Part shown: one piece after another, positions 629 through 62,458 of the stretch | How positions within the stretch are numbered: the stretch's first letter is position 1 | How the letters are laid out: the number at the start of each line of letters is the position of its first letter | Source: an uncultured Verrucomicrobiae bacterium | GTDB lineage: Bacteria > Verrucomicrobiota > Verrucomicrobiia > Chthoniobacterales > UBA10450 | DNA: 64,000 nucleotides | Assembly: GCA_963726745.1 (NCBI GenBank) | Contig: CAVSDR010000006.1 | Coordinates: forward strand, 608,001-672,000 | Reading direction: 5' to 3' | Position numbers and translations under genes: made by a program | Notes under the pieces: model-generated | What the model saw: only the letters and a program-made list of their open reading frames with translations | Told to the model about the DNA's origin: nothing | Databases searched by the model: none

Positions 629-861
629 GGAAACGAACGGGGAATGAAGTGGGAAGATTAACTGGTCACCCGGCATAGTCCAACCAGTTTCCCCGGGGAC
701 ATTGCAGGCGATGTGCCGCGGAGGGCGAATAGTCCTAAGCGCCTGAGGGAGGACTCGTTAGGGAAATCCTCGGCCGCCCTTTGAGCTAGCCAGCGTCCCG
801 TGGCCGGGATTCGGCGGTTCCAGATGTGGAACATGCGAGCGCGCAGACCAGAACCGGCTGG

Positions 862-1344
862 CTATTTCTTCGCGCAATAGGCGTGGATCTTGGTGTAGAT
901 CCGCAACCAGGCCTTCTGCTCTTCCGGGCTCAGGTGGTTCATCATCGTCATCAGGTTCTCCACCATCTCCAGCCGGATGCGCCGGACGAGCGCGCTCCCT
1001 TTTTCGGTGATGCAAACCATGACCTTGCGCCGGTCTTCGCGCGCGCTCGTGCGGACGACGTAGCCGAGATTTTCCAGGCGCGCGACCAATCCGCTGGCCG
1101 CTGCGGTGGTGTGCTCCATCTTGCGCGCGATCGCCGACATCGTCAGCACTTCGCTTTCATCGAGCGCCGTCAGGAGGAAGAACTGCGGAAAGGAGACATT
1201 CCCATCGGCGAGCTCGCGGCAGAGCCGCAGGATGAGGCAGCGTTGCAGCGCGAGAATGATATGCGCCAGGCGCTCCGCGTCGGCGCGATTACTCGCAGGC
1301 CGCTCGGTTAAAAGCGGGCGCGTTGGAAGAAGTGCCGAGTTCAA
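862..1344 (-). CDS. MarR-family transcriptional regulator
   Basis: Winged-helix MarR signature LTMSAIARKM...SGLVARLENLGYVVR...EDRRKVMVCITEKG; upstream of the TolC gene on the same strand. Confidence 0.9.
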   Translation of the reverse strand: MNSALLPTRPLLTERPASNRADAERLAHIILALQRCLILRLCRELADGNVSFPQFFLLTALDESEVLTMSAIARKMEHTTAAASGLVARLENLGYVVRTSAREDRRKVMVCITEKGSALVRRIRLEMVENLMTMMNHLSPEEQKAWLRIYTKIHAYCAKK

Positions 1345-1406
1345 CGGAGAAAGTTAGGGGCGCACTTCCGGGAGGTCAACCGAGCCGACACGCCGGCGCG
1401 CCCCAT

Positions 1407-2589
1407 TTACCGCCAGGTGAAAACGCGGCCCGCCGCACCGGCGGCGATGCACTCGCCCGGCGCCAGCCGCAGGAGCGCCGTGGCGCGGCTCAGGCCAAAG
1501 AGCGCATGCGATTCCTGCCGCCCCACGGTCTCAAATTTCCCGTCGCGCAGCGCGCCGCGGAGATAATGCGGACGGTCGCCCGGATTAGCCAGCGCCTCGG
1601 CCACTGGCGCGGAGAGACTCGCGAGACCGAGCGCCTCCTCGGCGGCGCCCATCAGCCGACGCAACGCCGGGCGCACAAAAAGCAGAAAGGTGACGAAGGC
1701 CGAGACCGGATTCCCTGGCAATCCAAAGACGAGGCAACCGTCCAGCCGTCCGAAGAGAAACGGCTTCCCCGGCTTTACCGCCACACGCCAAAGATCAAGG
1801 CTGCGCGCCCAGCTCCGTGAGCGCGGACTTCACCAGGTCGTGCGCTCCCACGGAGACGCCGCCGCTCACGATCACCACGTCAGCGGCGACCGCCGCGCGC
1901 AGGCTTTCGCCGATCGCGCCGCGCTCGTCGCGCGCGTGCACCCGCGACGCCACTTCCGCGCCCGCCTGTTGCACCAAGGCCGCGAGCATGAGCGAATTCG
2001 ACTCGTAGATTTGCCCCGGCGCCAAAGCAGCGCCCGCCGGCGCAAGCTCGTCGCCGGTCGAGAGCAGCGCGACCCGCGGCCGCCCGCCCACCGCCACCGT
2101 GTCCCAGCCCTGCGAGGCCAGCAGGCCCACAAGTGGCGCACTGATTTCCGTCCCCGGCGCGAAGAGCCTCTGCCCTTCCGCGAGATCGCCGCCCTGCCGC
2201 CGGACAAACTCGCCCGCCTCCGCGGTGGTCTGCAAAACGACCACGTCGCCTTCCGTGGTTGTCTCCTCCTGCATCACCACCGCATCCGCGCCCGCCGGCA
2301 GCGGCGCGCCGGTGAAAATCCGCGCCGCCTCGCCCGCGCACACGGTCAATTTCCGGTCCCGGCCAGCCGGTTGCTCGCCGATCACCCGCAGCCGCGCGCC
2401 CGGCGCCGTGTCCGCCGCGCGCACCGCGTAACCATCCATCGCCGAGTTGTCGAAACCCGGCAGCGCCACCTGCGCCCGCCGTTCCTCCGCCGCAAAATAG
2501 CCGACCGCTTCCAGCAACGGCACCCGGCGCGGCGGCAAGGGCCGCACCCGCGCGAGAATCTGCGCCCGCGCTTCCTCTTCGCCGATCAT
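1407..2589 (-). CDS. moeA: Molybdopterin molybdotransferase MoeA (split by a +1 indel near 1800)
   Basis: PGFDNSAMDGYA, IFTGAPLP, STGDEL and SGGVSVG in ORF 1795-2589; VKPGKP and GLPGNPVSA in ORF 1407-1784. Removing one C restores ELGAQ-LDLWRVAVKPGKP. Confidence 0.9.
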
Positions 2590-2942
2590 CGGTAAACGCG
2601 CTGCCCGCGCGCCGGCTCGCCGCTTAGGATGTCGGCGCTCACAAAAGGCCGCTTCCGTTCCGCGGTCACTTTCAGGCGCACGCTCTCGCCCGCCTCGGTG
2701 ATCGCAGTCAGCGGCGTCCCCGCCTCCGGTGGCGCGCCGGTGGCGCGCAGCTCGATCAAAACAAATTTGCCGACCAGATTCACCACCGCGATCTCGCCCA
2801 CGTAAGTCGGCGCGGTCACCGCCGGCGTCTTCGCCGTGACCGGAGTCTTGGGATGACAGGCCGCGAGCGCTAGCAGCAGCAGGAGCAAGCCGAGCGGCCG
2901 CAGGATTCCGCGCAGGCGTGGATTCGTTAGGCGGGGACGCAT
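2586..2942 (-). CDS. Hypothetical lipoprotein
   Basis: Basic N-terminus, hydrophobic stretch and lipobox LAAC; 4-nt overlap with the moeA start. Confidence 0.65.
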   Translation of the reverse strand: MRPRLTNPRLRGILRPLGLLLLLLALAACHPKTPVTAKTPAVTAPTYVGEIAVVNLVGKFVLIELRATGAPPEAGTPLTAITEAGESVRLKVTAERKRPFVSADILSGEPARGQRVYR

Positions 2943-3099: not shown

Positions 3100-5688
3100 G
3101 TGTCGCATCTCCCCACTTTTGGCGCGCGTCTGGCCCTTGGCGTAGCCCTGTTTTTAGCCGGCAACTTCAGCAGCCGCGCGGCTTCGTTTCTTTTCGATGC
3201 GGCGCATGCGCAGACGGCGGGGAATGCCGACTGGGTGATCGACCAGGACGCGGGCGGGCCGCAGCGTTTTCCCACGCCGGATCAGGCGACGGTGACGGCG
3301 ACCACGCCGGAGAATTACTGGAAAGGTGGCATCTCCGCGTGGGGGATCGAGCTGGTGAAGCGCGGCCACCAAGTGGAGACGCTCCCGGCGAGCGGCGTGT
3401 TGACGTATCAAAATGCCGGCAACGCCCAGGACCTTTCGCGTTACCAGGTGCTGGTGATCGACGAGCCGAACAAGGCTTTCACCGCGGCGGAGCGGACGGC
3501 GATCGTGAATTGGGTAAAGGCGGGCGGGAGTCTCTTCCTGATCGCGGATCACACCGGCTCGGACCGGAACGGTGACGGCAAGGATTCGGTCATGATCTGG
3601 AACGAGCTCTTCGCGAGCAACGGCGTGCAGGCCGCGCCGTTTGGCCTGGTGATCAATAGCGACAGCCTCTCGCCGCGGAATGAATCGGTCGACGGCACCG
3701 CGGGGAATCCGATCACGCGCGGAATAGCCGGCACGATCACGCAATTCAACTACGCCGACGGGGCCTCGCTCACGATCGACCCGACGAAGAACGCGAGCGT
3801 GAAAGGCGCGGTCTGGGCCAGCTCCACGCGCACGAACAGCAACGTGCTCGTGGCTTACGGGACCTTCGGCGCGGGCAAGTTCGTCGCCATCGGCGACAGC
3901 TCGCCGATGGACGACGGCACCGGTGCCGCCGGCGATGTGCTCTACGACGGCTGGACCGATGCCGGGGGGAACAACGGGCAACTGGTGATCAATGCCTCGC
4001 TCTGGCTGGCTACGCCGCTGGCCAACGCGCCCCCGCCTAACGACACCTTCCTGAGCGCCGCGGCGCTCGCCGGCCCCACGCCCAGCGCCACGGGGACAAA
4101 CGTGAACGCGACCAAGGAAACCGGCGAGCCGAACCACGGCGGCAACGCCGGGGGAAAATCGGTTTGGTGGAAATGGACCGCGCCCTCTTCGGGCACGGTC
4201 ACGCTCACGACCAGCGGGAGCAATTTCGACACGCTTCTCGGCGTCTACACCGGGGGCGCGGTCAACGCCCTCACCCTGGTCGCGGGGAATGACAACAGCG
4301 GCCCCGGCCTAACGAGCAGTGTCACTTTCAGCGCGACCGCGGGGCTGGTCTACGCGCTTGCGGTCGATGGGAACGGAGGCGCTGCGGGCAGCATTGCGCT
4401 CGCGCTCACTTTGACCGCGCCGCCCACCGGGGGCACGCCGGTGGCCTTCGCTTCCTGGAATTTTGACAGCACGCCGTATGCGAATCCGCTGCCGGCAAAT
4501 AGCGGCAGCGCTACGCTCGACTTCAGCGGCTGGGGCGGCACGGTAACGAACTTCGGCGGCGTGACCGGACAGGCGCTCGCGCTCCAGGGGACCGCGGGCA
4601 ATGGCACTTACATCGAGCTGGCTTTTTCCATGAGCGGCTATCGCGGCTTGAAGGTGGATTTCGCCACTCGCGGGACGGCCACCGGTTTCAGCAGCGGGAT
4701 TTGGTCGTGGAGCGTGAATGGCGGCGCCTTCACCACTTTGCCGGGCGTGAATACCGGCACCACCACAACCAGTTTCGTCGACAAGACGGTCGATTTCTCC
4801 GGTCAAACTGCGCTCGACCACGCCGCGTCCGTGCGCCTGCGCTACACCCTCAGCGGGAGCAGCGGCTCCTCGCCGAATGTGCGGATCGACGATCTCGTCC
4901 TGAGCGCAACCCAGGTTCCAGTAGTCAGCGTGGTCGTGACCAACGCCGACGCCTTCGAGGCCGGGATGCAGCCGGCCACGGTGGTGGTGAGCTCGTCGCT
5001 GGCCGCGGGCAGCGGCGGCCTGCCGGTTTCCTTCCAGCTCGGCGGGAGCGCGAGCGCGAGCGATTACTCGTTAGCCGGCAATTCGAGCGCGAACACGGTT
5101 ACGATCCCCGCGGGCGCGACCAGCGCGATGCTCACTTTCACTCCGATCGCCGACGGTAACCTGACGGAGTTCGACGAAAGCATAACCCTCGCGCTGGTCC
5201 AAAGTGCTGGCTATTTCCTCGGGACGCCGGCAGCCGCCAGCCTCACGATCCACGACGACACGCCCTACAATGCCACCTGGGCCGCGGCGCATCCGGGCTT
5301 CCAGGGCGCGCTCGCCGATCCGATGGCGGACCCGGACGCGGACGGAATTTCGAACCTCGAGGAGTTTGCCTACAACGGCGATCCTTTCCGCTCGGATCGC
5401 TCGATCCTGCCGGCGATCGCCGTCATGGAGTTCCCCGATCCGGCAGACGGCAATTTGAGCAAGCCGTATCCCACGATCTCGTTCCTGCGCCGGACGGACG
5501 CGCCCGACTTGGTCTACGCGGTGGAAATTTCCGACGACCTCCGCAATTGGACCAACGAGCTCGAGCAAATCTCGGCCACGCCCGACGCGGCGCCGAACAT
5601 GGAACGGGTGGTCTATCGCGGGCTCACCCCGCTGCGCGGAAACGGCGCCAAGCCCCGCGTTTTCCTGCGTGTGCGGGTGTCCTTTTGA
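3100..5688 (+). CDS. Large secreted multidomain protein (GATase-like/DUF4350-like N-domain, PPC-like domain, Calx-beta-like domain, verrucomicrobial C-terminal domain)
   Basis: Start moved to GTG at 3100 because 3016 lies inside the tRNA. Signal peptide, then FDAAHAQTAGNADW, PPNDTF...KSVWWKWTAP...FDTLLGVY, VTIPAG..SA..DG..EFDE, and C-terminal DPDADGISNLEEFA...YAVEISDDLRNW...FLRVRV. Confidence 0.75.
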   Translation: MSHLPTFGARLALGVALFLAGNFSSRAASFLFDAAHAQTAGNADWVIDQDAGGPQRFPTPDQATVTATTPENYWKGGISAWGIELVKRGHQVETLPASGVLTYQNAGNAQDLSRYQVLVIDEPNKAFTAAERTAIVNWVKAGGSLFLIADHTGSDRNGDGKDSVMIWNELFASNGVQAAPFGLVINSDSLSPRNESVDGTAGNPITRGIAGTITQFNYADGASLTIDPTKNASVKGAVWASSTRTNSNVLVAYGTFGAGKFVAIGDSSPMDDGTGAAGDVLYDGWTDAGGNNGQLVINASLWLATPLANAPPPNDTFLSAAALAGPTPSATGTNVNATKETGEPNHGGNAGGKSVWWKWTAPSSGTVTLTTSGSNFDTLLGVYTGGAVNALTLVAGNDNSGPGLTSSVTFSATAGLVYALAVDGNGGAAGSIALALTLTAPPTGGTPVAFASWNFDSTPYANPLPANSGSATLDFSGWGGTVTNFGGVTGQALALQGTAGNGTYIELAFSMSGYRGLKVDFATRGTATGFSSGIWSWSVNGGAFTTLPGVNTGTTTTSFVDKTVDFSGQTALDHAASVRLRYTLSGSSGSSPNVRIDDLVLSATQVPVVSVVVTNADAFEAGMQPATVVVSSSLAAGSGGLPVSFQLGGSASASDYSLAGNSSANTVTIPAGATSAMLTFTPIADGNLTEFDESITLALVQSAGYFLGTPAAASLTIHDDTPYNATWAAAHPGFQGALADPMADPDADGISNLEEFAYNGDPFRSDRSILPAIAVMEFPDPADGNLSKPYPTISFLRRTDAPDLVYAVEISDDLRNWTNELEQISATPDAAPNMERVVYRGLTPLRGNGAKPRVFLRVRVSF

Positions 5689-5727: not shown

Positions 5728-6357
5728 TTGTCACCGGCGATGCCTGCGCCCATGCTCCGCCACTTCATGACTCCCCGACTCCTCGTTAGGCTGTTCCTCG
5801 CCGCGGCTGCGACCTTGCTCTGTGTGAGCTGCGCGGAGATGAACCAGCCGGTGGCTGGCGCCCGCAGCGAGCAGATGAAAACGGCCATGGCCGCGCCTGC
5901 GCCGAAACCGGCCTACTGGGACGATGTGGCCGGCAAAGGCCGGGCGAAAATTGTCGTCAAGCTGGAGGAACAGCGCGCGTATTTCTATCGCGGGAAAGTG
6001 ATCGTGGGCGAGTCGAACATCTCCACCGGGCGCAAGGGCTTCGAGACGCCGCCAGGGAAATACGCCGTGATTCAGAAGGACGAGCACCACGCCTCGAATC
6101 TCTACGGCGACTACGTCGATCCCGCGGGCAACGTGGTGAAGGCAAACGTCGACACCTCGAAAGAGAGCGCGCCGGAAGGGGCGACTTTCCGCGGCGCGCC
6201 GATGAAATATTTCCTGCGCTTCACCGGCGGCTACGGGATGCACGCCGGCTTCGTCCCGCGCTACCGCGCCTCGCACGGTTGCATCCGCATGCCGAGCGAG
6301 ATGGCGCAGCACTTCTTCACCGCGGCCGACAACGGCACGCCGGTGATCGTGGAATAA
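5728..6357 (+). CDS. L,D-transpeptidase (YkuD family), probable lipoprotein
   Basis: ISTG..GFETPPG and GMHAG...ASHGCIRM catalytic motif; the true start may be 5740 or 5767. Confidence 0.9.
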   Translation: MSPAMPAPMLRHFMTPRLLVRLFLAAAATLLCVSCAEMNQPVAGARSEQMKTAMAAPAPKPAYWDDVAGKGRAKIVVKLEEQRAYFYRGKVIVGESNISTGRKGFETPPGKYAVIQKDEHHASNLYGDYVDPAGNVVKANVDTSKESAPEGATFRGAPMKYFLRFTGGYGMHAGFVPRYRASHGCIRMPSEMAQHFFTAADNGTPVIVE

Positions 6358-6380
6358 CGAGCGGCTGCGACTGCTCGTTA
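6355..6380. terminator. Hairpin between convergent genes, built from two inverted partial copies of the TCGTTAG motif
   Basis: TAACGAGCGG-ctgcga-CTGCTCGTTA; each arm contains the TAA stop of one flanking gene. No U-tract. Confidence 0.55.
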
Positions 6381-6716
6381 GCCGGGCGGCCAAACCAGCG
6401 GCCGCTTCCCGAGCACGTGCACATGCAGGTGCGGCACGCTTTCGCCCGCATCCGGGCCACTGTTGATCACCACCCGGTAGCCGCTCGCGAGCAAGTCGAG
6501 CTTTTCCGCGACCACGCGCGTGGCCAGGAGGAGCTTCCCGAGCAGGGCCTCGTCTTCTTCGGTGGCCGCAGAGAGCCGCGGGATCACGCGCTTTGGCACG
6601 ATCAACACATGCACCGGCGCTTTCGGATCGACGTCGTGAAAGGCGAGCAGGTCGTCGGTTTCATGCACGATCTGCGCGGGGATTTCGCGCGCGATGATCT
6701 TTTCGAAAATCGTCAT
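6378..6716 (-). CDS. hinT: HIT-family nucleotide-binding protein (HinT-like)
   Basis: Starts MTIFEKII; histidine triad VPHLHVHVLG; ends WPPG. Confidence 0.92.
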   Translation of the reverse strand: MTIFEKIIAREIPAQIVHETDDLLAFHDVDPKAPVHVLIVPKRVIPRLSAATEEDEALLGKLLLATRVVAEKLDLLASGYRVVINSGPDAGESVPHLHVHVLGKRPLVWPPG

Positions 6717-6736
6717 CTTGCCGGCTAATTCTTCGC

Positions 6737-7297
6737 CTAACGAAGGGAGCAGCGCAGGTGCTGCAGGGCGGGATCGGCGGAGAGTTTTTCGCGCACGAAA
6801 CAGACGATCTCTTCGCGCAGGGTATCGCAAGCGCGGGTCCACATTTTCGCGCCGCGCAGGTGTTTCACGCAGGCCGCCAGGCCGACAAGTTGCAGGCTAT
6901 CCGTCCCGGTGCCGACGAGAGCGTGGATGCGTTTCTCCAGCCCGTCGAAAAAGGCCAGCTCGTACCCGGTGCCCGCGGCTTCCGCGACCTCCACCAGCGA
7001 GACCGAAATCGGCGGCGGCGCCGGCTCGAAGAAGGGAATGATTTCCTTGTAGCCAATGACCTTGAGGACGTAGCGGACCGTCTGCGAAAGCTGGCTGAAC
7101 GGCACCACCGGCTCGTCGTTTCGCAGCCGCAGGTAGAAAGTAATGCTCTCGGTAATGTGATCGGTGAGCCACCAACTCGGATAGCCCGCCTGGTCGGCCG
7201 CGCGGGTAATCGCGGCATGGAGCCATTGCTGATTGAACTCAAACAGCTGCCCGGAATCGCAGCGGAGATAGGGGAATTCTTCTTTAAACGCTACCAT
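6737..7297 (-). CDS. Hypothetical protein with ATP-cone-like N-terminal region, overlapping nrdR
   Basis: Starts MVAFKEE within the nrdR 3' end; FNQQWLHAAITRAA...ITESITFYL...LSQTVRYVLKVIGYKEI resembles the ATP-cone helix pattern. Confidence 0.65.
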   Translation of the reverse strand: MVAFKEEFPYLRCDSGQLFEFNQQWLHAAITRAADQAGYPSWWLTDHITESITFYLRLRNDEPVVPFSQLSQTVRYVLKVIGYKEIIPFFEPAPPPISVSLVEVAEAAGTGYELAFFDGLEKRIHALVGTGTDSLQLVGLAACVKHLRGAKMWTRACDTLREEIVCFVREKLSADPALQHLRCSLR

Positions 7298-7897: not shown

Positions 7898-9253
7898 TTA
7901 GGGACAGCACGCCAACGCTGGCAAACCGCCCTGTCGCACCACGAGGCGTCCGCCGAGGATCACCGCGCGAATCCGGCGCGTGTGGCGGATTTGCTGGAGT
8001 GGGTTCGCGTCCAGCAGGACGAGGTCGGCCCGTTTCCCGACCGCAATTGATCCGCTCTCGGCATCTGCGCCGAGGAAACGCGCGGCCTCGAGAGTGGCCG
8101 CGCGGAGCGCTTCCGCAGGCGAAAGCCCCGCCGCGACCAAAAGCTCTAGCTCGAGATGAAGCGAACTGCCAGGGTAAACCAGCGGCATGGAGGCGTCGGT
8201 GCCCGCGAGGATCCGCGCGCCGGCCCGGTGCAAGGTGTGCACGAGCGCGCGGGCACGCTGCCAGCGCAGTTCCGCGATGCGATCGGGAGTCACATCTCGC
8301 TGTCTAAGGTGACGCGTCCAACGTGCTTGCTCATCGGCGCGCAGGAGCGGCCAGCGCGGATCGCGCCGGAAGGCATTCGCATTGCCCCGCGCTTCCAAGA
8401 ACGGCAGCACAAGTGTGGGCACCTGCGCCTGGCCGGCGCGCGCCAGGAGTCGCGCAACTTTCAGGGCCCGTTTCGCATCGAAGCCTTCCAGCGCCGCTTG
8501 CTCCTGCCCAGCGGCTGTGGCCACACCGCGCCGACGGGCCTCGAGGAAATTCACCTCGTTAGGCGCGGCGGCTTCGAGGAGCTGGGTAAGATGCTCGTTC
8601 GAACGCTGACCCGCGGCTGCGGCGGCGAGAATACTGACGGTTTCCGGGATGTGCCCGCAGACCGGCAGGTGCGAGGCGCGCGCTTCCGCCAAGGTTGCGT
8701 TCCAGGCCGGCTCCGGCAGCTCCGAAAAGACTTTCACGAAATCGGCGCCCGCGCGGCGGGCTGCCCGCACTTGCCGCCGCGCCTCGGCTGCAGAGGGACC
8801 GCGAATGAACACGCCAGCCGCGACAATCCGCGGAGCGAGGCGCTCTCCGCGACTTGTCTCCGCGCGCCAGCGTCGGATCGTGCGCAGGTCTTCCGGCCGG
8901 GCGGCCATCTCGCGCAGGCCAGTAACCCCGGCGGCCAGGAAAAGCGGGAACATCCAGTCGTTAGGCGGACGCCGGGTTGCGTTGTTGAAAAGATGGACGT
9001 GCAAGTCCACTAAGCCAGGAAGGAGAAAGTGCCCGCGGCCGTCCACACGCTCGGTCCCAGGCGGAAGCCGCACTGCTTCCGGCGCCACAATCGCCGCGAT
9101 CCGATCGCCTCGCACGACGACCGTGCGCGGCGGGAGCACCTTCCCCGCGGCCACGTCGACGATGGCAACACCCTCGATCGCCAGCAGCGGCTCCGCCCGC
9201 GTTGTCGCGGTCAACGCGATCACAAAGGCGAACGCGATTCCCCACAAGCGCAT
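7898..9253 (-). CDS. Secreted amidohydrolase-family protein
   Basis: Signal peptide; LLPGLVDLHVH, GADFVKV, ILAGTDA, GSIAVGKRADLVLLDANP. Confidence 0.88.
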   Translation of the reverse strand: MRLWGIAFAFVIALTATTRAEPLLAIEGVAIVDVAAGKVLPPRTVVVRGDRIAAIVAPEAVRLPPGTERVDGRGHFLLPGLVDLHVHLFNNATRRPPNDWMFPLFLAAGVTGLREMAARPEDLRTIRRWRAETSRGERLAPRIVAAGVFIRGPSAAEARRQVRAARRAGADFVKVFSELPEPAWNATLAEARASHLPVCGHIPETVSILAAAAAGQRSNEHLTQLLEAAAPNEVNFLEARRRGVATAAGQEQAALEGFDAKRALKVARLLARAGQAQVPTLVLPFLEARGNANAFRRDPRWPLLRADEQARWTRHLRQRDVTPDRIAELRWQRARALVHTLHRAGARILAGTDASMPLVYPGSSLHLELELLVAAGLSPAEALRAATLEAARFLGADAESGSIAVGKRADLVLLDANPLQQIRHTRRIRAVILGGRLVVRQGGLPALACCP

Positions 9254-12087: not shown

Positions 12088-13192
12088 CTAGCCGAGTTTG
12101 ACGAAATATTTTCCCGGCAGCTGTTTGACGAGCCGTTTTAGCTCAAGGCGCAGGAGGGTAGAAGAGACGCTCCCGCTTGGCAAATTGGATTTTGCCGCGA
12201 TGTCGTCGATGGAAGTTTCGGTTTCGCGGATGGCTTCGAAAACGCGGCGTTCGTCTTCCGTCAGCTCAGGCAAGGGGCGCGCGGCCGCTTCCGGCGCGGG
12301 CTTGGTGTCGGGGAGGAGGAGATTCAGATCGTCGAGAATGTCGCCCGCTTCCGCGACCAGTTTGGCGCCCTGCTGGATCAAACGATTCGAACCCTGCGCG
12401 CTCGGGACATTGATGTGGCCAGGCACAGCGTAGACCGCGCGTCCCTGGTCCAGCGCCTGGGTCGCGGTGATGAGCGCGCCGCTGTTCAGCCCGGCTTCGA
12501 CGACGAGGATGCCGTGGCTCCAACCGCTGATGATGCGATTCCGCATCGGGAAGGTTTGGCGGTCCGGCTCCACCGTCATGGAAAACTCCGAGACGACCGC
12601 GCCGCCGCCGCTCGCAATTTTCTCGGCGAGGCCGGCGTTCTCCGGCGGGTAAAGCTTCATTAAACCGGAACCGATCACGGCAATGGTGCGGCCTTTCGCG
12701 GCGAGCGCGCCCTGATGCGCGGCGGTGTCGATTCCGCGCGCGAGACCGCTGACAATCGTCAGTCCCGCATAGGCCAACTGGTAGGCTAATTTCTTCGCGC
12801 TCTCGCTGCCGTAATGCGTCGTGCGACGGGAGCCAATCACGCCGATGGCGTGGCGGTCGCGCTCGAGGAGTTCGCCCCAGACGTAGAGCACGATCGGCGG
12901 CGCATGGATCTCGCGCAGTTGCCGCGAATACATCGGCGATTCCGCGGTGATGACCGTCGCGCCGAAATCGCGGATGCGCTGCCAGTTCCGCCGGCAAGAT
13001 CGACCGCGAGCTTTCCCAGTCGACGATCTGCGCCGCGACTTCCGCACCGATCCCTTCGACTGCGCGCAGCGCCGCGCCTTTTGCCTGGAGGACGCGCTCG
13101 GGCGTTTCGAAAACCTCGAGGAGCTTCCGCAGGCGCACCGGCCCCATCTTCGGGAGCATGTTCAGCGCGATGCAGGCCTCGGTGGAGTTCAT
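12088..13192 (-). CDS. dprA: DNA-processing protein DprA (several indels clustered at about 12975-13015)
   Basis: N-part ALNMLPKMGPVRLRKLLEVF; C-part IVSGLARGIDTAAHQGAL, FPMRNRIISG, EAGLNSGALIT, and C-terminal wHTH LLRLELKRLVKQLPG. Confidence 0.92.
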
Positions 13193-13270
13193 CTGCGAGC
13201 GCCGGTCGAGGACCGCGAGAAATTAGCCGGCAAGTTCATGGGGGAACCACCGATCGAGGAAACCCGGAGG

Positions 13271-47603: not shown

Positions 47604-47635
47604 GGGGGAGACTCTAGCGCGGGCGCCGACGGCGG

Positions 47636-50030: not shown

Positions 50031-50200
50031 ATCGAGTAATGAAAAACGCGGTTTAGTCTAGAATATGTCCTGATTATGGAACGTGGGGAGGCGCCGCGGG
50101 CCATCCTTGGTAGCACTTGACCGCCTGCTTTGCACGACAATTTTCGCCGCGAAACGCGAGAAAACCTCCCGCACCGGCGTTCGCCTTCGCACCCAGAACG

Positions 50201-50235
50201 CAAAAGCCTGGCAAAGGTTTCCCCTTGCCAGGCTG
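50201..50235 (-). terminator. Probable intrinsic terminator of the 50263-54087 gene
   Basis: Minus strand AGCCTGGCAAGGG-gaaa-CCTTTGCCAGGCT followed by TTTG. Confidence 0.7.
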
Positions 50236-50262
50236 CGTGAGGTCTAACGGTCGATCGCTGTC

Positions 50263-54087: not shown

Positions 54088-54276
54088 ACGGGATTTTGAG
54101 GGCGGGAGAGTGGTCAGGACGCGCCGCCACTGACAAGGAAAACTTTTTTTATTTTCAATCTCTCGAGGAAGTTGCGAATACATCGGGCTTTCCCATAAAA
54201 ACCAGACGCGGCTTCTGCGGCCGCGCCGGTTTTAGCCGACACTTTCACCCTCCAGCGCCCTCCCCGGCGGGAACGG

Positions 54277-56473
54277 TTACGGCAGCATTTGCCCGGCCCG
54301 TGACCGCGCGATGATGGCGTCGCCCGCGTTAATGAAACCGTCCGCGTTCAGGTCCGAGCGGACCGTCGTGGCGTCCGGACTGCCGGAGCGGCTGCGCACC
54401 TGCAGGCTGTCGCCGACATTGACCGTCCCGTCGCCGTTACTGTCGCCATAGAGAAACGCGATCGGCACCACGATGTCGCCCACGCCGCTGCCATCGTTCA
54501 CGCCTGCAAGCGTAACACTTAACCGGGAAACATCCGGCACATTGGCGAGATTGACCGTGATCACACTCCCGCTTGAGCTCGCGCTGCTAACCGTGGCCGG
54601 GCTCGTCACCGAAGCCCCGCTAAAGGTGACCGCAGTCGGAAACGTCACGACAATCTTGTGCTGGCCTGCGACCGGCCCGACGCGGCATTCGATCCCGCTG
54701 TTGCCGACGAGTGGCAGGTTAATATCGAGATCGCCTTCCGCGGCGTGCGCTTTCCGCGAAACCGCGGCACTCACCGGCGGCGCATACGGGAAGCGGAATT
54801 TCCCGATGCGCGTGCCCCAGGCCGAGCTGCTGGTGGCGGGATAGTATTCGTTCGTGTGCCAGAAGGAAAAGTTGTCCGCCGGATCGATCCCAAGTGCGCT
54901 GTAGTCGCCCCAGCGCCCGCTCGAGCTGGTCTGGTGCCCGCCGCCGGCGATGAGCACTGCCTCGCCTTGCGCAAGAGTATTCACTGGGTCCGCCGCGAGC
55001 CGTCCGGCATAACGAATCCCGGGCTCGATCGTGCTTCCGGAAGCCGAGTAGGCGATCGCCATGTTGCCCGCAGCATCGACCGAGATGCTGGGCATGAAGC
55101 GCCAGAGCCCATCGGCGGCGTTGGTGAAGGTCTGCTGCTGCGCCGCGGTCGCGGGAATCGTCCCGCCGGTGACGTTAAATTGATACCAGCGAATGCCGGT
55201 GGGGCCGGTGCCGGCCTGGTTATTGTTCACCGTGTGCGCGGCCCAAAGCGACTCGACCCCGGCGCGATTTTGGTAGACCACCGGCGACATGATCTTGTCG
55301 CCTAAAGTATCGAGCTTCGCCGTGGTGCCATTCTGCGGCACGATCAAGGTCGTGCTGGTGTAGGCATCCACAAAACCACTCACGGTGATGTCCGCATTGG
55401 CAGTGTGGTTTGCGCCCACGCCAAAGGTGGAATTCGCCGGCGTGGTGAAATCCGGCTGGAAGCGCCAGACGTGCACCTTCGTCTGGACCACACCGGCAGC
55501 GCCCGGGCTATCGATCGCGAGCAGATATTCCGCGGTCCCGGCCGGCGGCGGGCTCCCAGCGCGGAAGGTGGCCGCGACCAGGCTGTAGGCATCGCCGATG
55601 GTGGCAGCGTCAATCGTGTAGGCGATGGCGCCGGCATTAGGCGCGCCGGTGCCGTTGACCATCGCCTGGCGCGGCAGGGCAAAGACGCGCACGCCGTTAA
55701 AGGTGGTGTTGCTGCTGAAGAGATTCACCGTCAGGTAGTAGGCGTTCGGCCACAGCGCGATCTTCCCGTAATCGCCGAAGTGTGACGGGTTCGCCGGGTC
55801 GATCTGGACCGCGTAGAGCCACCAGCCGCCCGAGACCGGGATCGCTCGTCTTCGAGACGCCGATGCACTGGTAAAACGACACGCCGGGGAAAGCCGGGAA
55901 CGCAAAGTCGCTGACTACCCAGCGATCCGCGAGATGATCATAGAGCACCAGGCCGTCGCCTTGGTTTTGGTTTAAGCCGCACGGCGTGCCGCTGCTCGCG
56001 AGCCCGGAAAAAAAGCTGTTGTAGGTCGTGGGCGCGAGCAGCTGGTTGCCCGCCTTGTCGATGATCTTGATGCTGGAATTAACCGACTGGATGTAGTGGT
56101 TCGGCCCGACGTCGCCGTGCGTGTCCGGCGGCAGGCAACCGCAGCCGCTCTGCGCGGAATTAATCCCGGCAAAGGTCGCAAGCGGCGCCGGCATGGTCAC
56201 CGCCTGCGCGACCCGCCGCACGGCCCGGATCGCATCCTGTGCATCCGTTCCTTGGAACGCTGGGTAACGGGTAAGCCGCTGCTCATCAGCTTCCATCGTC
56301 GCCGGCTCAAACGGCAGGTCGCGCAGGTCGGTATCCATCGAGACCGGCCCGATCAATGGGACCACATCTGGCTGGCCCGCGGCCGGAGCCTTTCCGTCCG
56401 GCTCCGCAGCGGCGACGGGAAACGTCAGGAGCGTGAGGGCGAAAATGTGGGCGAGGCCAAGTATCTTTTTCAT
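54277..56473 (-). CDS. Secreted protein (uncharacterised propeller-like domain) with C-terminal dockerin-like domain (indel near 55838)
   Basis: Signal peptide; PPDTHGDVGPNHYIQSVN, DYGK, RWGDYS; C-terminal AVSRKAH...GIECR...GDSNGDGTVN.GD...RSDLNADG.IN.GD. Confidence 0.8.
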
Positions 56474-56524
56474 AAAAGCGGGGAAGGACGAGAACAGAAG
56501 TCTTTTGCCCGCCAAAAGTCACGC

Positions 56525-58285
56525 CTAATCCAGGGTGTAAGCCTCGACCGTGGCCACACCGAGGCTCCCGTTCTTGCCGCGCACGATCGCGGTGTGCGCC
56601 GTCGGCGGAAGCGTGGCCACGATGGCCGCCTCGAGGTCGTTTGGCGGCGGCACCGTGCTGTCGATGATCTCCTGCTGCTGGCCGCCGGTGCGCCAGTTAT
56701 CGTTTGTCGCCAGGAGCACGCCGTCTTTGTTGTAAAGCTCGAGCGTGGGGTCGGCTAATTTGTTCGCGACCGCGAGCGACGGCCCGAGCGAGCGCACGAT
56801 CACTTTCTTGTTCGTCGTCCCGGTGATGATGAAGCCGCCGATCATGACGTCATTCCCGGTCTGGACAAAGCCGCGGCTGGAGATGTTTGCCAGGGTGGAA
56901 TCGGCCGCCGGATCGAGGTCGTAGATTTCCACCGAGCCAATCCCGGTGCCGCCGCCGACGCCGCGGACGATCGCGGTGTAAGCGGTGCGATTCGCTGGCA
57001 AAGTCGCGATGAGCGCGGCCTCGAGGTCATTCGTCGGCGGGACCGTGCTGTCGATGATCGCCTGCTCCTGGCCGCCGGTGCGCCAGTTGTCATTCGTCGC
57101 GATCAAGCCGCCCGGTCCGTGCAATTCCAGGATCGGGTCGGCTAATTTGCCGGCCAGATTGTAGGACGGCCCGAGCGAGCGAATGATCACCCGCTTCGGC
57201 TGCGTGCCGGTGACGATGAAACCGCCGATGAGGACGTTGTCGCCCGTGCCCACATTCATTCGCGTGGAGATATTGCCGAAGCGCGCCGGGGCGCCGACTG
57301 CGGCCGCGAGGTAATCGACTTTCGCGTTCAACAAGCCGCTGACGGTGGTCGTGCGCTGCGTAGTCGCGACGCCGCTGCCGCTGAAGGTCGCGGTGTAGGC
57401 GCCGTTCCCCGGCACCGGCACGGAGTAGCCGCCAGACGCGCTCGTGATCGCAAAGAAGTTCGAGCCGTTCACGTCCACGCGGACGCCGCCGATCCCCTCG
57501 CCCGGGTCGTAGAAATTGTTTCCGTTGGCATCGTTGTAGACCACGCCGGTGACAAAGGGCGTGCCGCCGCTCTGCGTGCCGAAGTTTTGCACCACGTAGA
57601 AGGAATCCCACGGGCCGCCGGGCTGGCCGGGATTATTCTGGTTATCCGTGCCCACGGAAATGCCGATGCCGGCCTCGCGCCAAAAGCCGAGCATGGTCGT
57701 GTTGCGATGACCGCGGCCGGGCACGGTCAGGTCGGTGAAGAGATCGTTGTGCGCCTGGAGGATGGCGCTGATTAATTTCGCGCCGCTATACGGTCCGCTC
57801 CCCTGCGACTCGGCGATGGCGACATTCTCCGCGCCCGGAAAAAATCCGGAAGTGGTCGTGGGCCCGTTATACGTCGCTTTCACATAGCCGGTAGCCGCGA
57901 TGCGCTGGTCCGGCGTGCTTCCGCCAAAGGTGTGGGGCGAGCCGCCGAGGAAAAATTGGTCGGCGTTGTTGAGATTGTTTGCATGGTTTTGCGCGGCGGT
58001 CTGGAGCTGCGGATTCCACGAGAGCGGCTGGTTCGCATTCGCAATCGTCCACACTTCGCCATTGTAATTCGGCGGGCCTTCCTGCAACCCGCTTAAGCCC
58101 AAGCGCGTCGCCTCCGCGCCGCCGTTGGCCCGCGCGCGGTTGATCAGCTCGAGCATGTATTGCTGCTCATTCGAGGGGTTGCCGATGGAATACTGCGTCT
58201 GCCCCTGCGCTCCGGCCGCGAGCGCGAGCAATCCCACCACCACACCAACCCCAGCCCCAAAACGACGAAACTCCGTAGCATGCAT
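56525..58285 (-). CDS. Secreted CAP/SCP-domain protein with tandem 'NISTR' C-terminal domain
   Basis: EQQYMLELINRAR, L..AAQNH, ENVA, GHR..ML, GIG, QNFG; then GNISTR...LIGGFIV...NDNW twice. Confidence 0.82.
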   Translation of the reverse strand: MHATEFRRFGAGVGVVVGLLALAAGAQGQTQYSIGNPSNEQQYMLELINRARANGGAEATRLGLSGLQEGPPNYNGEVWTIANANQPLSWNPQLQTAAQNHANNLNNADQFFLGGSPHTFGGSTPDQRIAATGYVKATYNGPTTTSGFFPGAENVAIAESQGSGPYSGAKLISAILQAHNDLFTDLTVPGRGHRNTTMLGFWREAGIGISVGTDNQNNPGQPGGPWDSFYVVQNFGTQSGGTPFVTGVVYNDANGNNFYDPGEGIGGVRVDVNGSNFFAITSASGGYSVPVPGNGAYTATFSGSGVATTQRTTTVSGLLNAKVDYLAAAVGAPARFGNISTRMNVGTGDNVLIGGFIVTGTQPKRVIIRSLGPSYNLAGKLADPILELHGPGGLIATNDNWRTGGQEQAIIDSTVPPTNDLEAALIATLPANRTAYTAIVRGVGGGTGIGSVEIYDLDPAADSTLANISSRGFVQTGNDVMIGGFIITGTTNKKVIVRSLGPSLAVANKLADPTLELYNKDGVLLATNDNWRTGGQQQEIIDSTVPPPNDLEAAIVATLPPTAHTAIVRGKNGSLGVATVEAYTLD

Positions 58286-58344
58286 GGGCGCACGCTACGG
58301 AGTTCGCGAATTTCTCTCAAGCCTCGAGAGGCTGAGAATGCTGA

Positions 58345-61300
58345 CTAATTTAAGGTGTAGGCTTCCACCGTAGCCACCCCGGTGCTGCCGTCTTTGCCGC
58401 GAACGATCACAGTGTGAGCGGTCGACGGCAGGGTGGCGACGATCGCCGCTTCGAGGTCGTTCGGCGGAGCCACGGTGCTGTCGATGATCTCCTGCTGCTG
58501 GCCGCCGGTGCGCCAGTCGTCATTCGAGGCGATGAGCACGCCGTTGGCGTTGTAGAGCTCGAGCGTCGGGTTCGCGAGTTTCCCCGCAACCGTAAGGCTC
58601 GGCCCGAGCGAACGGACGATTACTTTCTTCATGCCGCCGCCGCGGATAATGAAGCCGCCGATCATGACGTTGTCCGCTGTCTGGACAAAGCCGCGGCTGC
58701 AGATGTTCGCCAGGGCGGAATCAGCCGTCGGATTGAGGTCGTAGATTTCCACTGAGGCGATGCCGGTGCCGCCATCCTTCCCACGCACAATCGCGGTGTA
58801 ACCGGTGCGGCCCGCAGGGAGCGTGGCCACGATTGCCGGCTCGAGATCGTTCGAGGGAGCGACCGTGCTGTCGATGATCTCCTGCTCCTGACCACCGGCG
58901 CGCCAGTTGTCATTCGAGGTGATCAAGCCGCCAGGACCGTAGAGCTCCAGCGTCGGGTCGGCCAATTTGCCGGCAAAAGTGTAGGACGGTCCGATCGCGC
59001 GGATGATGACTTTCTTCGGCGCCGTGCCGGTAACGATGAACCCGCCGATGAGGGCGTTGTCGCCCGTCTCCACGCGCATGCGAGTGGCGATGTTGCCGAA
59101 GATGGTCGGCGTCGCGCTCGGGGTCGGCGTGGGAGTCGAGTCGGGTCGGGGTCGGGGTCGCTGTAGGCGTTGGCGTGGCCGTTGGGGTCGGCGTCGGCGT
59201 CGGCGTTGGCGTAGCCGTCGGAGTCGGCGTCGGAGTCGGAGTCGGCGTCGGGGTCGGGGTGCCGGCGTTGATCGTCAGGTCGGCGTCCGAGATGTCGAAG
59301 AAGACGTTGCCCACCGCTTCGACCTTGATGCGGCCGGTGGTGGTGTCGACGTTCGGCAAGGTCACGCTGGCGCTGCCGTTGTTCGGAACCGAGCCCGCGA
59401 GGACGGTCGGGAAGGTTTGCCCGCCATCGGTCGAGAGGCTGATCTTCACATTCGCGGCGTTCACTGGCGCGGCGTTGGTGTTGGCCACACTCCAGGTCAC
59501 AGTCACGGCGGTGTTGCCAGTGAGCGTGGTGGCAGTGTTCGGCGCGGTGATCACGAACGGGCCGCTGGCTGCATCGACCGTTACGGTGGTGCCGGCATCG
59601 ACCACGCCGCCGCGACCGTCGCGTGCGACCACGCGGAAGTTCATCGTGCGGGCGACAGCCGGCAGGATCTCGCCGGTCACGCAAGTGATCCCGGTCTCGC
59701 AGACTGCACCCATCGGCGAAGTGCCGGTGAAGGTGAGAGGCGGGAGGTTCGCGTTATTCAGGATGTAAGGCAGGCTCGGGAAGGTGCGCGTAGGGCTGGC
59801 CGAGGGCGCGTAGACGCGGAAGAGCGGGCGCAAAACGCCATCGCTATCCTGATCGTAAGCGCCGGGCGGCATCCCCTCGGGACCGCTGGCCGCGGCCGCG
59901 AGATCGTATTCTTCCCAGGAGTAGCTCAAGGGATCGTTGTCGGCGTCGGTGCCGAGCGCGGTGAGCGCAAACGGCGTCTGCTTTGGAATGGTGTAGCTGG
60001 CGCCGGCACTGACCGTGGGGACGTTGTTCCCCGTGGCGGTGTTCGTGCCGCAGCTGCCGCCGCCCGTGGCGTCGGCTAATTCCGTGAAGATCTGCGTCAG
60101 GCTGCGCACCGAGAAGGTGTCGAGCGAATACTGCTGCAGGTTGCGCGCGCCGCAGATGCCGACGTAGGACATGATCGTCGAGCCGCTGGCCGGCTCGTAG
60201 GCGTCATTCGCCGAGCGCGTGCTGCAGGTGCCGGTTTCCTTGGTGTTATAGGTGTGCTGTGCGGAGAGCTGGTGTCCCATTTCGTGCGCCACGTAGTCGA
60301 CCCAGAACGGGTCGCCCGTAGGGGGGACGCGCGCGGAATAGCCTTCCCCCTTTTGCGCCGAGCAAATCGAGGGGCTGCTGGCCACGCCGCCGCCGCCGGT
60401 GCCGAAGAGATGGCCGAGATCGTAATTGGCATTGCCAACGATGGTATCGAGCTGGGTCTGGTTAATCGAAAGCTGGTTGGTGTTGTCGGTGTTGTCGTAG
60501 GGGTCGGTCGCCGGGTCCGGGAAGACGATGTTTTTGCCCGAGACGAGCGTGAGCGCGACCGAGAGATCGCGCCGGTAGATGGTATTGATCCGGTTGACCG
60601 CGTTCATCACGTCGGCAAAAGCGGCATCCTGCCCGCCGCGGTTCACGGTGTATTCCCCGGTGGTGGCAATGGCCACGCGGTAGGTGCGAAGATTCGCGCC
60701 GTTGCTAAAGCGCGGAGCGATCGCGCGCTTCGCGGTCTTTTCCTGCGAGGGGCCCGGGTGCTTCGTCTCGTCGGCTAAATAGCGATCGAGTTCGCAATGG
60801 AAAGCGTTCTGCGCCGCAGCGACGTCGCTCTTGAAGTAAGTCACGCAATGCGCGCGATCGCTCGCGCTGCGCGGATCGACCAAATACGCGCCATCCTTCC
60901 CGATCACGTAGGCCGAGAATCCTTCCCGCGACCAGCTCAAGCGTGCCACCGCAGTGGTGTCGTCGAGGCCGCGCGCGGAATAGGTCTTCCAATCCGGGCG
61001 CTCCGCCGCGGCTTTGCCGGCGAGCATCGGGGACTCTTCGATCCGGAAACGCTCCACCTGCCCATCCGGGCGCGGCAGCGTGATCTCGATTGCGATCATT
61101 TCGGCCGCAGGCGTGAACTCCATCGGCGCGCTCTCCAGGATGGATTCCATCGCCGGGACGTCGAGCGCCAGGGTGCGTGCGCCCGCCGGAGCAGAGTGGT
61201 TTTGCGGCAGGGCCGCCAACTCTTTCTGGTCGACGCTGCGCCACAGAGTCGATTGCGCGGCAGCAGTGGCCGCGAGGAAGACACACGCCAAGCTGGCGGC

Positions 61301-61357
61301 GAATAAAGGCTGCAAACGTAGGAGCGCTCGGAAGCGCAGAGGACAATTCTTTATCAT
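58345..61357 (-). CDS. Secreted reprolysin-like (M12B) zinc metallopeptidase with Pro-Thr linker and tandem 'NISTR' C-terminal domain (indel in the linker near 59145)
   Basis: Pro-domain; AHEMGHQLSAQH zinc motif; Met-turn STIMSY; (PT)n linker; ORF 58345-59079 supplies the C-terminal domain. Confidence 0.85.
59105..59262 (-). repeat. Hexanucleotide-like tandem repeat encoding the (Pro-Thr)n linker
   Basis: Repeated TCGGCG/TCGGGG/TCGGAG units on the + strand; translate as TPTPTP on the - strand. Confidence 0.85.
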
Positions 61358-61468
61358 GTGGATTTTCGAGATTCTCAGACACGCGTCAGTCACCTGCACA
61401 CTTTATGCAGGTTCATGCGCGGGCGGACGTTAGCGCGGAAGAGCTGGTTTTCCAGCGCTATGATAAAA

Positions 61469-62458
61469 TTAATAGCGCCCAGCGCGTTCGAGCAGCGGCT
61501 GCCACCAATGCTGGTTTGCCAAATACCAGTCGATCGTCGCTTCAAGGCCTTCGCGGAAGTGGTGCCGCGGGCTCCACTTCAACTCCTGGAGCGCGAAGGA
61601 GGAATCGATCGCATACCGCCGGTCGTGCCCCAACCGGTCGGTCACAAATTGAATCAGCGAATGCGGCTTCCCGAGCTTGTCCAGGATCAGGCGCACGACG
61701 TCGATGTTCACCATCTCGCTGTTGCCGCCGAAGTTGTAGACCGTGCCCGGTTTCCCCTCGAAAAGCGCGGCCACGATCCCGGCGCAATGATCTTCCACGT
61801 GGATCCAGTCGCGCACGTTTTGCCCATCGCCGTAGACCGGGAGCGGCTCGTCGCGCATCGCCTTGATGATCATCAACGGGATCAGCTTCTCGGGAAATTG
61901 ATACGGCCCATAGTTGTTCGAGCAGCGGGTCACCACGACCTCCTGGTCGAAGGTCTTGTGCGAGGCGAGGGCAATCAAATCCGCGCCCGCCTTGCTCGCG
62001 GAATAGGGCGAGCTCGGCTCGATCGGCGATTGCTCGGTGAAGCGGCCGGTCGCGCCTAACGAGCCGTAGACCTCGTCGGTCGAGACCTGGACGAACCGCT
62101 GCACCCCGTGGCGCCGGGCGCAGTCGAGCAGGATGCTGGTGCCGACGACGTTCGTGTGGATGAAATTTTGCGGATCGTTGATCGAGCGATCGACGTGCGA
62201 TTCGGCCGCGAAGTTGACCACGGCAAAAAAAAGATGCTCGCGCATGAGCGCATCCATCTGGTCGGCGTTGGCGATGTCCGCCTGGAAGAACTCGTAGCGC
62301 TCGCCATGTTCCTCCGCCACCCCGTCGAGGTTGGCCAGGTTCCCCGCGTAAGTCAGGACATCGACATTGCTCAGCGACGCCTGCTTGTAATGTTCGAGAA
62401 CGTAGCGAATAAAGTTGCTCCCGATGAAGCCGCAGCCGCCCGTAACTAAAATGCGCAT
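61469..62458 (-). CDS. rfbB: dTDP-glucose 4,6-dehydratase
   Basis: ILVTGGCGFIGSNF, LTYAGN, AAESHVDRSI, VSTDEVYGSL, PYSASKA, DRLGHDRRYA. Confidence 0.97.
   Translation of the reverse strand: MRILVTGGCGFIGSNFIRYVLEHYKQASLSNVDVLTYAGNLANLDGVAEEHGERYEFFQADIANADQMDALMREHLFFAVVNFAAESHVDRSINDPQNFIHTNVVGTSILLDCARRHGVQRFVQVSTDEVYGSLGATGRFTEQSPIEPSSPYSASKAGADLIALASHKTFDQEVVVTRCSNNYGPYQFPEKLIPLMIIKAMRDEPLPVYGDGQNVRDWIHVEDHCAGIVAALFEGKPGTVYNFGGNSEMVNIDVVRLILDKLGKPHSLIQFVTDRLGHDRRYAIDSSFALQELKWSPRHHFREGLEATIDWYLANQHWWQPLLERAGRY

Follow-up and report, generated by a model that had tools for sequence, protein, structure and literature searches.

What is the short DNA word that recurs along a 64,000-nucleotide stretch of an uncultured Verrucomicrobiae bacterium of the family UBA10450, order Chthoniobacterales (assembly GCA_963726745.1, here G000), and what keeps it there? 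We refer to that stretch, G000:C6:608001-672000, as the window, and give feature coordinates as window positions. The word, W1, is the 9-bp TCGTTAGGC, whose fuller form in G000 is W-N-N-A-C-TCGTTAGGC. We show that W1 is a real and sharply specified signal at the level of DNA, neutral with respect to strand and replichore, conserved between species, found family-wide with dialects and nearly absent from sister families. As to its role, we tentatively favor a self-recognition signal in DNA uptake or recombination, of the kind known from the DNA uptake sequences (DUS) of Neisseriaceae, the uptake signal sequences (USS) of Pasteurellaceae and HIP1 of cyanobacteria, a reading to which we give a probability of about 0.4 on the strength of genome comparison.

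Exact copies of W1 number 22 in the window (13 on the + and 9 on the - strand), where dinucleotide-preserving shuffles averaged 0.43 and reached 3 at most, and at 15 of these sites an extra 5′ C extends the word to CTCGTTAGGC. A sequence-only reading of this DNA had arrived at the same two figures and strand split; the outer coordinates it gave, 754 and 62063, were reproduced, and the reading frames it listed proved correct by independent open reading frame (ORF) calls. Its estimate of about nine one-mismatch copies came down to six when counted with the leading C, four of them CTCGTTAGCC, which it had rightly named as the commonest variant. By our own ORF calls, 14 of the 22 sites lie inside ORFs (4 read as S-L-G, 6 as P-N-D/E, 3 as L-T and 1 as V-R), 3 provide a gene with its stop and 5 fall between genes.

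The excess holds for the whole genome (3.41 Mb in 7 contigs, 63.7% GC, 94.7% complete), which has 1312 copies of W1 (631 + 681 on the two strands), or 1 per 2.6 kb, and whose top two 10-mers are CTCGTTAGGC and its complement. Genes were taken from 2591 ORF-based calls with a codon-usage score, rough calls that cover 83% of the genome and miss short genes. Within these coding sequences W1 occurs 922 times, against a mean of 19.2 (6.5 + 12.7) in 20 synonymous-codon shuffles that hold the protein sequence and the codon counts of each gene fixed, an enrichment of about 48-fold. It also exceeds a dicodon expectation that is itself inflated by the motif, with 420 copies observed against 142 expected in the S-L-G frame and 144 against 10.5 for CCT-AAC-GAG. 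A maximal-order Markov model gave an expectation close to the observed count and is uninformative, since the sub-words are almost wholly made by the motif. Among 300 permuted 9-mers of the same composition the median was 15.5 copies and the maximum 209.

The word is also narrowly defined. Most of its single-base variants number 0-50 copies in G000 and TCATTAGGC has none; 24 of the 27 stay at or under 134 copies, the three changes at position 7 being counted apart. The changes that are tolerated lie chiefly at the 3′ end (position 7 G>C 240, >T 123 and >A 80; position 8 C>G 134), along with C>T at position 1 (121) and A>C at position 5 (79). Upstream, W1 prefers C at -1 (62%, with A at 2%), A at -2 (43%, with C at 9%) and A or T at -5 (69%), and the same preferences are found in 252 copies outside gene calls, so that they are a property of the DNA signal rather than of codons. 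Further out than -5 the flanks are at background, and W1 is therefore not part of a longer repeat.

By our ORF calls, 70% of copies lie within genes, 507 in sense and 415 in antisense orientation, and all four stop-free frames are occupied (419 S-L-G, 88 V-R, 215 L-T and 200 P-N-D/E). The mark left on the coding sequence is considerable: TCG-TTA-GGC writes 420 of the 732 S-L-G tripeptides of G000, where TTA makes up only 2.9% of leucine codons, as the sequence-only reading had surmised in proposing that the motif drives synonymous codon choice. Even the proteome is affected, S-L-G standing at 1.61x and P-N-E at 2.39x of the frequency expected from composition, while permutations of these tripeptides are not uniformly raised. 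W1 supplies the stop codon of 157 of 2583 ORFs (TAG in 67, TAA in 90), and is uniformly placed within genes apart from these; the gene stop is its cheapest in-gene place and is heavily used. W1 is thus a DNA-level signal that overrides codon choice, and its distortion of codon usage, stop choice and tripeptide frequencies matters for modelling these genomes. Stop codons in G000 are near even by the rough gene calls (TAG 911, TGA 858 and TAA 814 of 2583 ORFs), which is unusual for 64% GC and comes partly from W1 (the 157 stops) and from copies, giving TAG or TAA, of the second word W2 described below.

With regard to orientation, no 50-kb bin on any contig departs much from an equal share of W1 on the two strands, and the split per bin fits 50:50 (chi2 70 on 64 df). 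The strand of W1 is correlated neither with GC skew (rho = -0.005; 151/152 copies on the two strands in the lowest and 154/166 in the highest GC-skew quartile), hence there is no replichore polarity, nor with the strand of genes (rho = -0.0003). Its density per 20-kb bin tracks GC (r = 0.57), long gaps between copies are over-frequent in G000 (coefficient of variation 1.14), and the largest W1-free stretches tend to have lower GC, 0.593-0.600 against 0.637.

To place W1 among relatives we used the reversed word as the control in genome comparisons. It is found in all 24 of the same-genus genomes, with 138-2412 copies against 20-118 of the control, and in 16 genomes of 15 sister families of the order it falls to 1-19 copies, below their own controls (these counts, together with the PilT-like site counts and the single-locus tree given below, include the unpublished genomes G001, G008 and G156). 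Across the family we drew 120 genomes from 36 genera, or 121 genomes with G000, a sample whose counts of W1, W2, W3 and ComEC include the unpublished G042, G046 and G053. Over the 120 the ratio of W1 to control runs from 0.45 in G063, with 13 copies, to 56 in G089, with 4336 copies in 3.2 Mb, and by our reading of the table at least one genome in 33 of the 36 genera has W1 at twice the control or more, the exceptions being g29, g39 and g49. The nearest public records are uncultured soil metagenome-assembled genomes (MAGs), labelled by their submitters as Chthoniobacterales, Spartobacteria, Verrucomicrobia(e) or Candidatus Udaeobacter. In a single-locus tree of 29 genus members W1 density follows clades, and within one genus it spans 43 to 709 per Mb, which we put at a 30-fold range. 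A hidden dialect was sought in the low-density same-genus genome G002 and none was found; W1 itself is there merely sparse, with 19 copies against 0.8 expected in 400 kb. The same 400 kb (G002:C10:1-400000) holds TAGGAGTAGGAGTA-type words at 18-20 copies against fewer than 1 expected and GTCATCCCGAGC at 30 against 1.3, words that could represent tandem repeats or a further young word.

Individual sites are kept between species. When the window was aligned to five word-rich relatives (G013, G024, G007, G148 and G010; 75-78% identity), W1 was kept in 21 of 30 site-genome pairs at ~76% identity, whereas aligned 9-mers as a whole were kept in 11-14% of cases; the 21/30 figure represents 10 distinct sites in relatives that are not independent of one another. 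The relatives do not share the two intergenic copies that precede the PilT-like genes. At the PilT-like F-S-L-G-E site (40465), all word-rich genomes have W1, and word-poor ones mostly read TCGCTCGGC, which encodes the same peptide; at the F-S-L-G-I site of guaA, W1 is present in 24 of 77 orthologues from named MAGs. In orthologue alignments W1 replaces synonymous codons without gaps, which shows that it is not an inserted element, and the fact that more than 100 genomes, each assembled independently, are enriched in it excludes the assembly artefact that the sequence-only reading had named as a possible refutation.

Along the window, the first exact copies are at 2924..2932 (+), antisense in ORF 2586-2942(-) as CTA-ACG (L-T), and at 4035..4043 (-) and 4307..4315 (-), both antisense in ORF 3016-5688(+), as CCT-AAC-GAx (P-N-D) and CTA-ACG (L-T) respectively, the latter kept in G007. 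They are followed by 5783..5791 (+), in sense as GTT-AGG (V-R) in an L,D-transpeptidase gene; by 6735..6743 (-), whose TAG is the stop of ORF 6737-7339(-) and which is kept in 4/4 aligned relatives; by 8556..8564 (+) and 8958..8966 (+), antisense in an amidohydrolase gene as P-N-E and P-N-D; and by 14689..14697 (+), intergenic and adjoining pth, kept in 3/4 aligned relatives. A copy at 28239..28247 (+) is antisense (L-T) in the TPR-protein ORF 27556-29430(-). Around the serpin gene W1 lies downstream at 30302..30310 (-), intergenic, and within it, antisense as P-N-E, at 30780..30788 (+) and 31332..31340 (+); 33045..33053 (+), antisense in ORF 32690-33208(-), is likewise P-N-E and kept in 2/2 aligned relatives. 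Two copies are not kept in 3 aligned relatives: 38467..38475 (-), whose complement provides, as TAA, the stop of the response-regulator gene 37696-38472(+), and 38513..38521 (-), intergenic and upstream of the first PilT-like gene. The second PilT-like ATPase carries two in sense, S-L-G at 39952..39960 (+), present in 8/29 genus members (6/26 without the unpublished genomes), and F-S-L-G-E at 40465..40473 (+), in 15/29 (12/26). The remaining copies are at 42141..42149 (-), sense S-L-G in the leucyl/phenylalanyl-tRNA protein transferase gene; 43016..43024 (+), sense F-S-L-G-I in guaA; 45984..45992 (-), which ends the DUF1573 gene 45986-46741(-) with its TAG; and, both intergenic, 46781..46789 (+) and 62054..62062 (-), the final copy ahead of and the first copy past a W1-free stretch of 15.3 kb (46790..62053). 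That stretch holds genes for large secreted proteins, among them dockerin, CAP and reprolysin-like metalloprotease genes and those of 1305-aa and 599-aa proteins without Pfam hits. The one-mismatch copies are CTCGTTAGGG at 754..763 (+), CTCGTTAGGA at 10706..10715 (+), and CTCGTTAGCC, which with 240 copies is the commonest variant genome-wide, at 5067..5076 (+), 6374..6383 (+), 26302..26311 (+) and 34692..34701 (-).

De novo k-mer ranking on stretches of single genomes, used to search for dialects, found both dialects and separate words in the family. In G089 (g41), where W1 reaches 1525 copies per Mb, the flank preferences are different (T at -1 and R-A downstream); G098 (g22) retains C-N4-TCTCGTTAG and not the GGC; G073 (g49) has a different word, AAGATCGACA(A); and in G063 (g39) k-mer ranking found no word. 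The word of G073, which in its core form AAGATCGACA we call W3, amounts to 4653 copies in the 2.9 Mb of G066, alongside 1803 of W1, and to 2607 copies in G045. It dominates other genera, is present at hundreds to ~1600 copies in g25, g30, g38, g32, g50, g47, g46, g49, g29, g27 and g23, is rare in g1, g41, g19 and g34, and numbers 22 in G000 against 0 of its control. Stretches of 120-140 kb from each of the sister-family genomes G030, G031 and G028 held no iterated words.

The source genome has, besides, a second abundant word of its own. W2 takes the form of an A/T-rich segment followed by TTAG-N-C-R-R-C and, counted only where TCG does not precede, has 1642 copies in G000, with TTAGCCAGC (459), TTAGCCGGC (299), TTAGCCGAC (265) and TTAGACAGC (122) as its variants. 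It lies mostly in genes, as TTA-GCC-AGC or as antisense CTG-GCT-AAx. Of the 121 family genomes only G000 (479), G015 (127) and the unpublished G046 (136) have TTAGCCAGC above control, and none of 25 site-genome pairs in the five relatives keeps W2, ordinary codons standing in its place. Being almost private to G000 and unkept in its relatives, W2 is, as judged from these comparisons, the young word and W1 the old one. The sequence-only reading, sound in its description of W1, had missed both W2 and W3. A single function shared by W1 and W2 was considered and rejected, as the two show no mutual avoidance in G000 and their phylogenetic ranges are quite different; in the 14 largest W1-free stretches W2 is at near-normal density (117 copies against 156 expected), and in that of the window it has 9 copies against 9.1 expected.

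These nine copies are at 51242..51250 and 54232..54240 on the + strand and at 48737..48745, 55297..55305, 56750..56758, 57137..57145, 58340..58348, 60071..60079 and 60770..60778 on the - strand. Elsewhere in the window the + strand has W2 at 1585..1593, where relatives read other letters, 3154..3162, 13223..13231 (also compared with relatives), 19671..19679, 25757..25765, 32826..32834 (not kept in 2 relatives), 41709..41717, 42666..42674 and 46716..46724, and the - strand at 6720..6728 (compared with relatives), 8299..8307, 18445..18453, which is in the prs gene and where relatives read CTGTTGGTCGAC-like sequence, 23641..23649, 31521..31529, 34569..34577, 34923..34931 and 46610..46618. Two further copies stand back to back, 10978..10986 (-), not kept in 4 relatives, and 10988..10996 (+), where relatives read AGATTGGCCAGG-like sequence. 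Together they make a near-palindrome of the GCCGGCTAA-A-TTAGCCAGC type, and similar pairs are found elsewhere in G000.

How, then, might W1 be maintained? Nine specified positions, persistence over ~24% divergence and the replacement of W1 by dialects or unrelated words in sister lineages are most economically explained by one or more sequence-specific readers. A putative protein reader would favor DNA that carries W1, most likely in the uptake or recombination of relatives' DNA by a type IV pilus/ComEA/ComEC/DprA route, and copies born by point mutation would spread and be retained, also within genes, at places where the protein can accommodate S-L-G, P-N-D/E, L-T, V-R or a stop codon. We infer the place of action of this reader, DNA uptake or recombination, from the behavior of the word, and likewise infer separate readers for W2 and for W3. 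The gene content of G000 is consistent with such a route: it encodes ComEC, a 103-aa ComEA-like HHH protein, DprA, SSB, two PilT-like ATPases and pilin-like genes, and gives three secretin hits. In the window, as context only, dprA (12088..13047, -; DNA_processg_A and DprA_WH domains) stands in the operon rplY-pth-rpsF-ssb-dprA-topoisomerase, the two PilT/PilU-like ATPase genes (T2SSE) are adjacent at 38559..40977 (+), and a pilin-like ORF with a G-FSIVE prepilin motif, cut after G, at 15497..16090 (+) is followed by a second N_methyl ORF and by a DUF7305 gene (16571-18133). In a wider and more doubtful form, which we consider possible, W1, W3, W2 and the dialects would each have an exchangeable reader of their own, and these readers would be gained, lost and combined among lineages, a multi-word barcode for combinatorial self-recognition. 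If this were true, the combination of words would define the partners of DNA exchange, in contrast to the single word of Neisseriaceae and of Pasteurellaceae.

Several observations weigh against an uptake or recombination signal. Competence in the UBA10450 family is a prediction from gene content, and the presence in the window of dprA, ssb and pilT, correctly recognized by the sequence-only reading, says less than it had supposed: dprA and ssb belong to a ribosomal-protein operon, a housekeeping context as is that of the pilT-like genes, and ComEC fails as a predictor of the word, being encoded by 115 of the 121 family genomes, those of the word-poor g22, g39 and g49 among them. A search of G000 for the pilin domain ComP_DUS (Pfam), a DNA-binding pilin of the ComP type having been suggested, gave a best score of 21.9 bits against a cut-off of 27.3. 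The pilin-like gene at 15578-16087 was rejected as a ComP analogue, as it was not found in word-rich G013, nor in G073 and G089, and was found in word-less G063 and in G098. Nor does W1 pair into inverted repeats as the DUS of Neisseria does: 50 pairs within 100 bp were expected and 11 observed, of which 5 are in opposite orientation. Short gaps between copies are scarce in G000 (5 against 25 expected below 50 bp; 69 against 144 below 300 bp), a shortage that could suggest that one copy per fragment is enough; as a general property it is ruled out, since it is absent for W1 in 200 kb of G089, the densest genome sampled (109 against 113 below 300 bp), and also for W3 in G073. We know of no proven uptake system in which a genome combines two or three unrelated words. 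Finally, site conservation and even spread fit a role in chromosome architecture equally well.

That role, in which W1, and also W2 and W3, would be docking sites for abundant nucleoid or chromosome-organizing proteins and selection would keep them spread, is the second in our ranking and unlikely. Words confined to one family would fit a lineage-specific protein, and such docking would agree with W1 sites that are conserved between species, occur on all contigs without polarity and, in G000, are depleted at short spacing; there is also a precedent in the role proposed for HIP1 (Xu, Lawrence and Durand, PMC5861425). A housekeeping protein should, however, not tolerate 43 to 709 sites per Mb within a genus, nor the full loss of its sites in G063 or their replacement by unrelated words, and in G089 the short-gap depletion is wanting. 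A methylation-linked word of the HIP1 or Campylobacter RAATTY type, in which the word is modified by a resident orphan methyltransferase and selection or recognition, in repair, uptake or protection from a restriction-like nuclease, acts on that modification, comes third and is in our view more unlikely again. HIP1 is read by the methylases DmtA and DmtC (PMC13756078), and its effect on transformation is methylation-dependent (bioRxiv 10.1101/2024.09.10.611283). G000 does encode a solitary beta-class N6/N4 methyltransferase, distantly CcrM/YhdJ-like (G000:C3:981245-982039), that is present with 65-78% identity in every family genome asked (5/5, 3/3 and 7/7) and patchy elsewhere in the order (10/83 genomes). 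As a reader it was rejected: it is intact in word-less G063 and in G073, which has another word, and the sister-family genomes G199, G185 and G209 possess it and have no iterated short word in 89-140 kb each. The sole C5 methyltransferase was rejected as well, being sporadic in the family (10/121 genomes), with identities that ignore phylogeny and a mobile look. The methyltransferase-linked alternative of the sequence-only reading therefore found no partner in either enzyme, neither of which tracks the word; moreover, a contiguous asymmetric site of 9-14 bp is unusual for a methyltransferase.

The other explanations are improbable to different degrees. Under neutral replenishment, biased repair or gene conversion would keep creating a functionless word, in keeping with words that arise by point substitution at existing codons, with no indels, and with a density that behaves as a slowly drifting trait of the lineage. 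We hold this improbable: all nine positions are specified and near-cognate variants are rare, a process of the very-short-patch type fixes one position only, Vsr was not found in G000 (94.7% complete), and sites persist over ~24% divergence far above background, an argument also raised against neutral replenishment of HIP1 (PMC5861425). A polar signal for recombination or segregation, either Chi for RecBCD/AddAB or KOPS for FtsK, is very improbable. W1 is short, asymmetric and over-represented, and its density resembles that of Chi in E. coli, but it lacks strand polarity (631 against 681 copies; rho = -0.005 with GC skew) and is thus neither Chi nor KOPS unless the contigs are grossly misassembled; the replichore polarity that the sequence-only reading said would point to such a signal is absent. 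For fragments of mobile or repeated elements, such as repetitive extragenic palindromes (REP) or miniature inverted-repeat transposable elements (MITE), or for an assembly artefact, high copy number is the only point in favor, and flanks at background past 5 bases, in-frame gap-free copies in conserved genes and enrichment in more than 100 assemblies refute them, leaving a chance that is next to nil. The DNA uptake or recombination signal stays first in our ranking.

In comparison with the established systems, the likeness to DUS, USS and HIP1 that had been proposed from the window extends to abundance, family range, dialects and site conservation. The DUS of Neisseriaceae, for which ComP, a minor pilin, is the reader, comes in eight dialects (Frye et al. 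2013, PMC3630211). Like it, W1 is a short non-palindromic word that each genome carries thousands of times, on either strand, with a conserved core, dialects that follow phylogeny and some word-less family members, and it is rare in neighboring taxa and thus discriminates self from foreign DNA. Unlike it, W1 has a different sequence in a different phylum, comes without a ComP_DUS domain or inverted-repeat pairs, lies mostly inside genes, may share a genome with one or two unrelated words (up to two or three words in all), and has a putative role in uptake. With the USS of Pasteurellaceae (PMC3458573, PMC1626085, PMC2817400) W1 shares a 9-bp asymmetric core with weaker flanks (W at -5, A at -2 and C at -1 in W1), copies that are mostly coding, in frames giving tolerable peptides, with an effect on the proteome (in W1 the S-L-G and P-N-E excess), and the want of an assigned receptor; as the USS itself has none assigned, the failed ComP test bears on membership of the DUS class only. 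The differences are in sequence, in a much wider range of density across relatives (13 to 4336 copies) and in competence, which for the W1 family is predicted from gene content. HIP1 of cyanobacteria, GCGATCGC (PMC5861425, PMC13756078), is similarly hyper-abundant (15- to 300-fold, against ~48-fold for W1), has sites conserved between genomes, no evident RNA or peptide role and variant words in some lineages, and its function was long obscure before being tied to transformation, as a proposed uptake signal (PMC13756078). It is palindromic and has cognate methylases, whereas W1 is asymmetric and the methyltransferases examined do not track it.

The sequence-only reading knew of no such element described for Verrucomicrobiota, and our literature search, whose scope left out most subscription-journal papers, found no published description of W1 either. 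The matches listed for exact TCGTTAGGC or its complement were primers and unrelated constructs, and the literature on Verrucomicrobia or Udaeobacter together with DNA uptake (sequence) had nothing on W1 by title or abstract start. Elements of this kind were known before. New are their occurrence in this phylum and across a whole family of abundant uncultured soil bacteria, and the fact that several unrelated words coexist and turn over.

Three further repeats or loci came to light along the way. The 12-mers of G000 are led by tandem repeats of the hexamer GTTGGC (GCGTTGGCGTTG with its rotations, ~100 copies each), which probably stem from a repeat-rich gene or from one or several tandem arrays. 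Pieces of a Type I/MADS-like adenine methyltransferase lie at two contig ends of the same genome (G000:C4:371899-372432 and C6:336-1251) and may be one defence locus split by assembly. In the sister-family genome G199, 140 kb (G199:C1:1900001-2040000) contain ~167 copies of one long repeat; its sub-words, such as CCCCATTGAAG and GTCCGCACG, are all equal in count, a pattern expected of a CRISPR-like array of very large size.

The Chthoniobacterales/Candidatus Udaeobacter soil group is among the most abundant of soil bacteria. With 1312 copies in G000 against 1-19 in genomes of sister families, W1 would be the first genomic sign of sequence-specific self-DNA recognition in the phylum. The three words and their dialects, at 0 to 1500 copies per Mb in more than 100 genomes, form a data set for the discovery of readers by phylogenetic profiling, and they suggest a design rule for genetic tools, namely to place W1 on the construct, as with HIP1. 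For organisms not yet grown, W1 thereby offers a handle for testing natural transformation.

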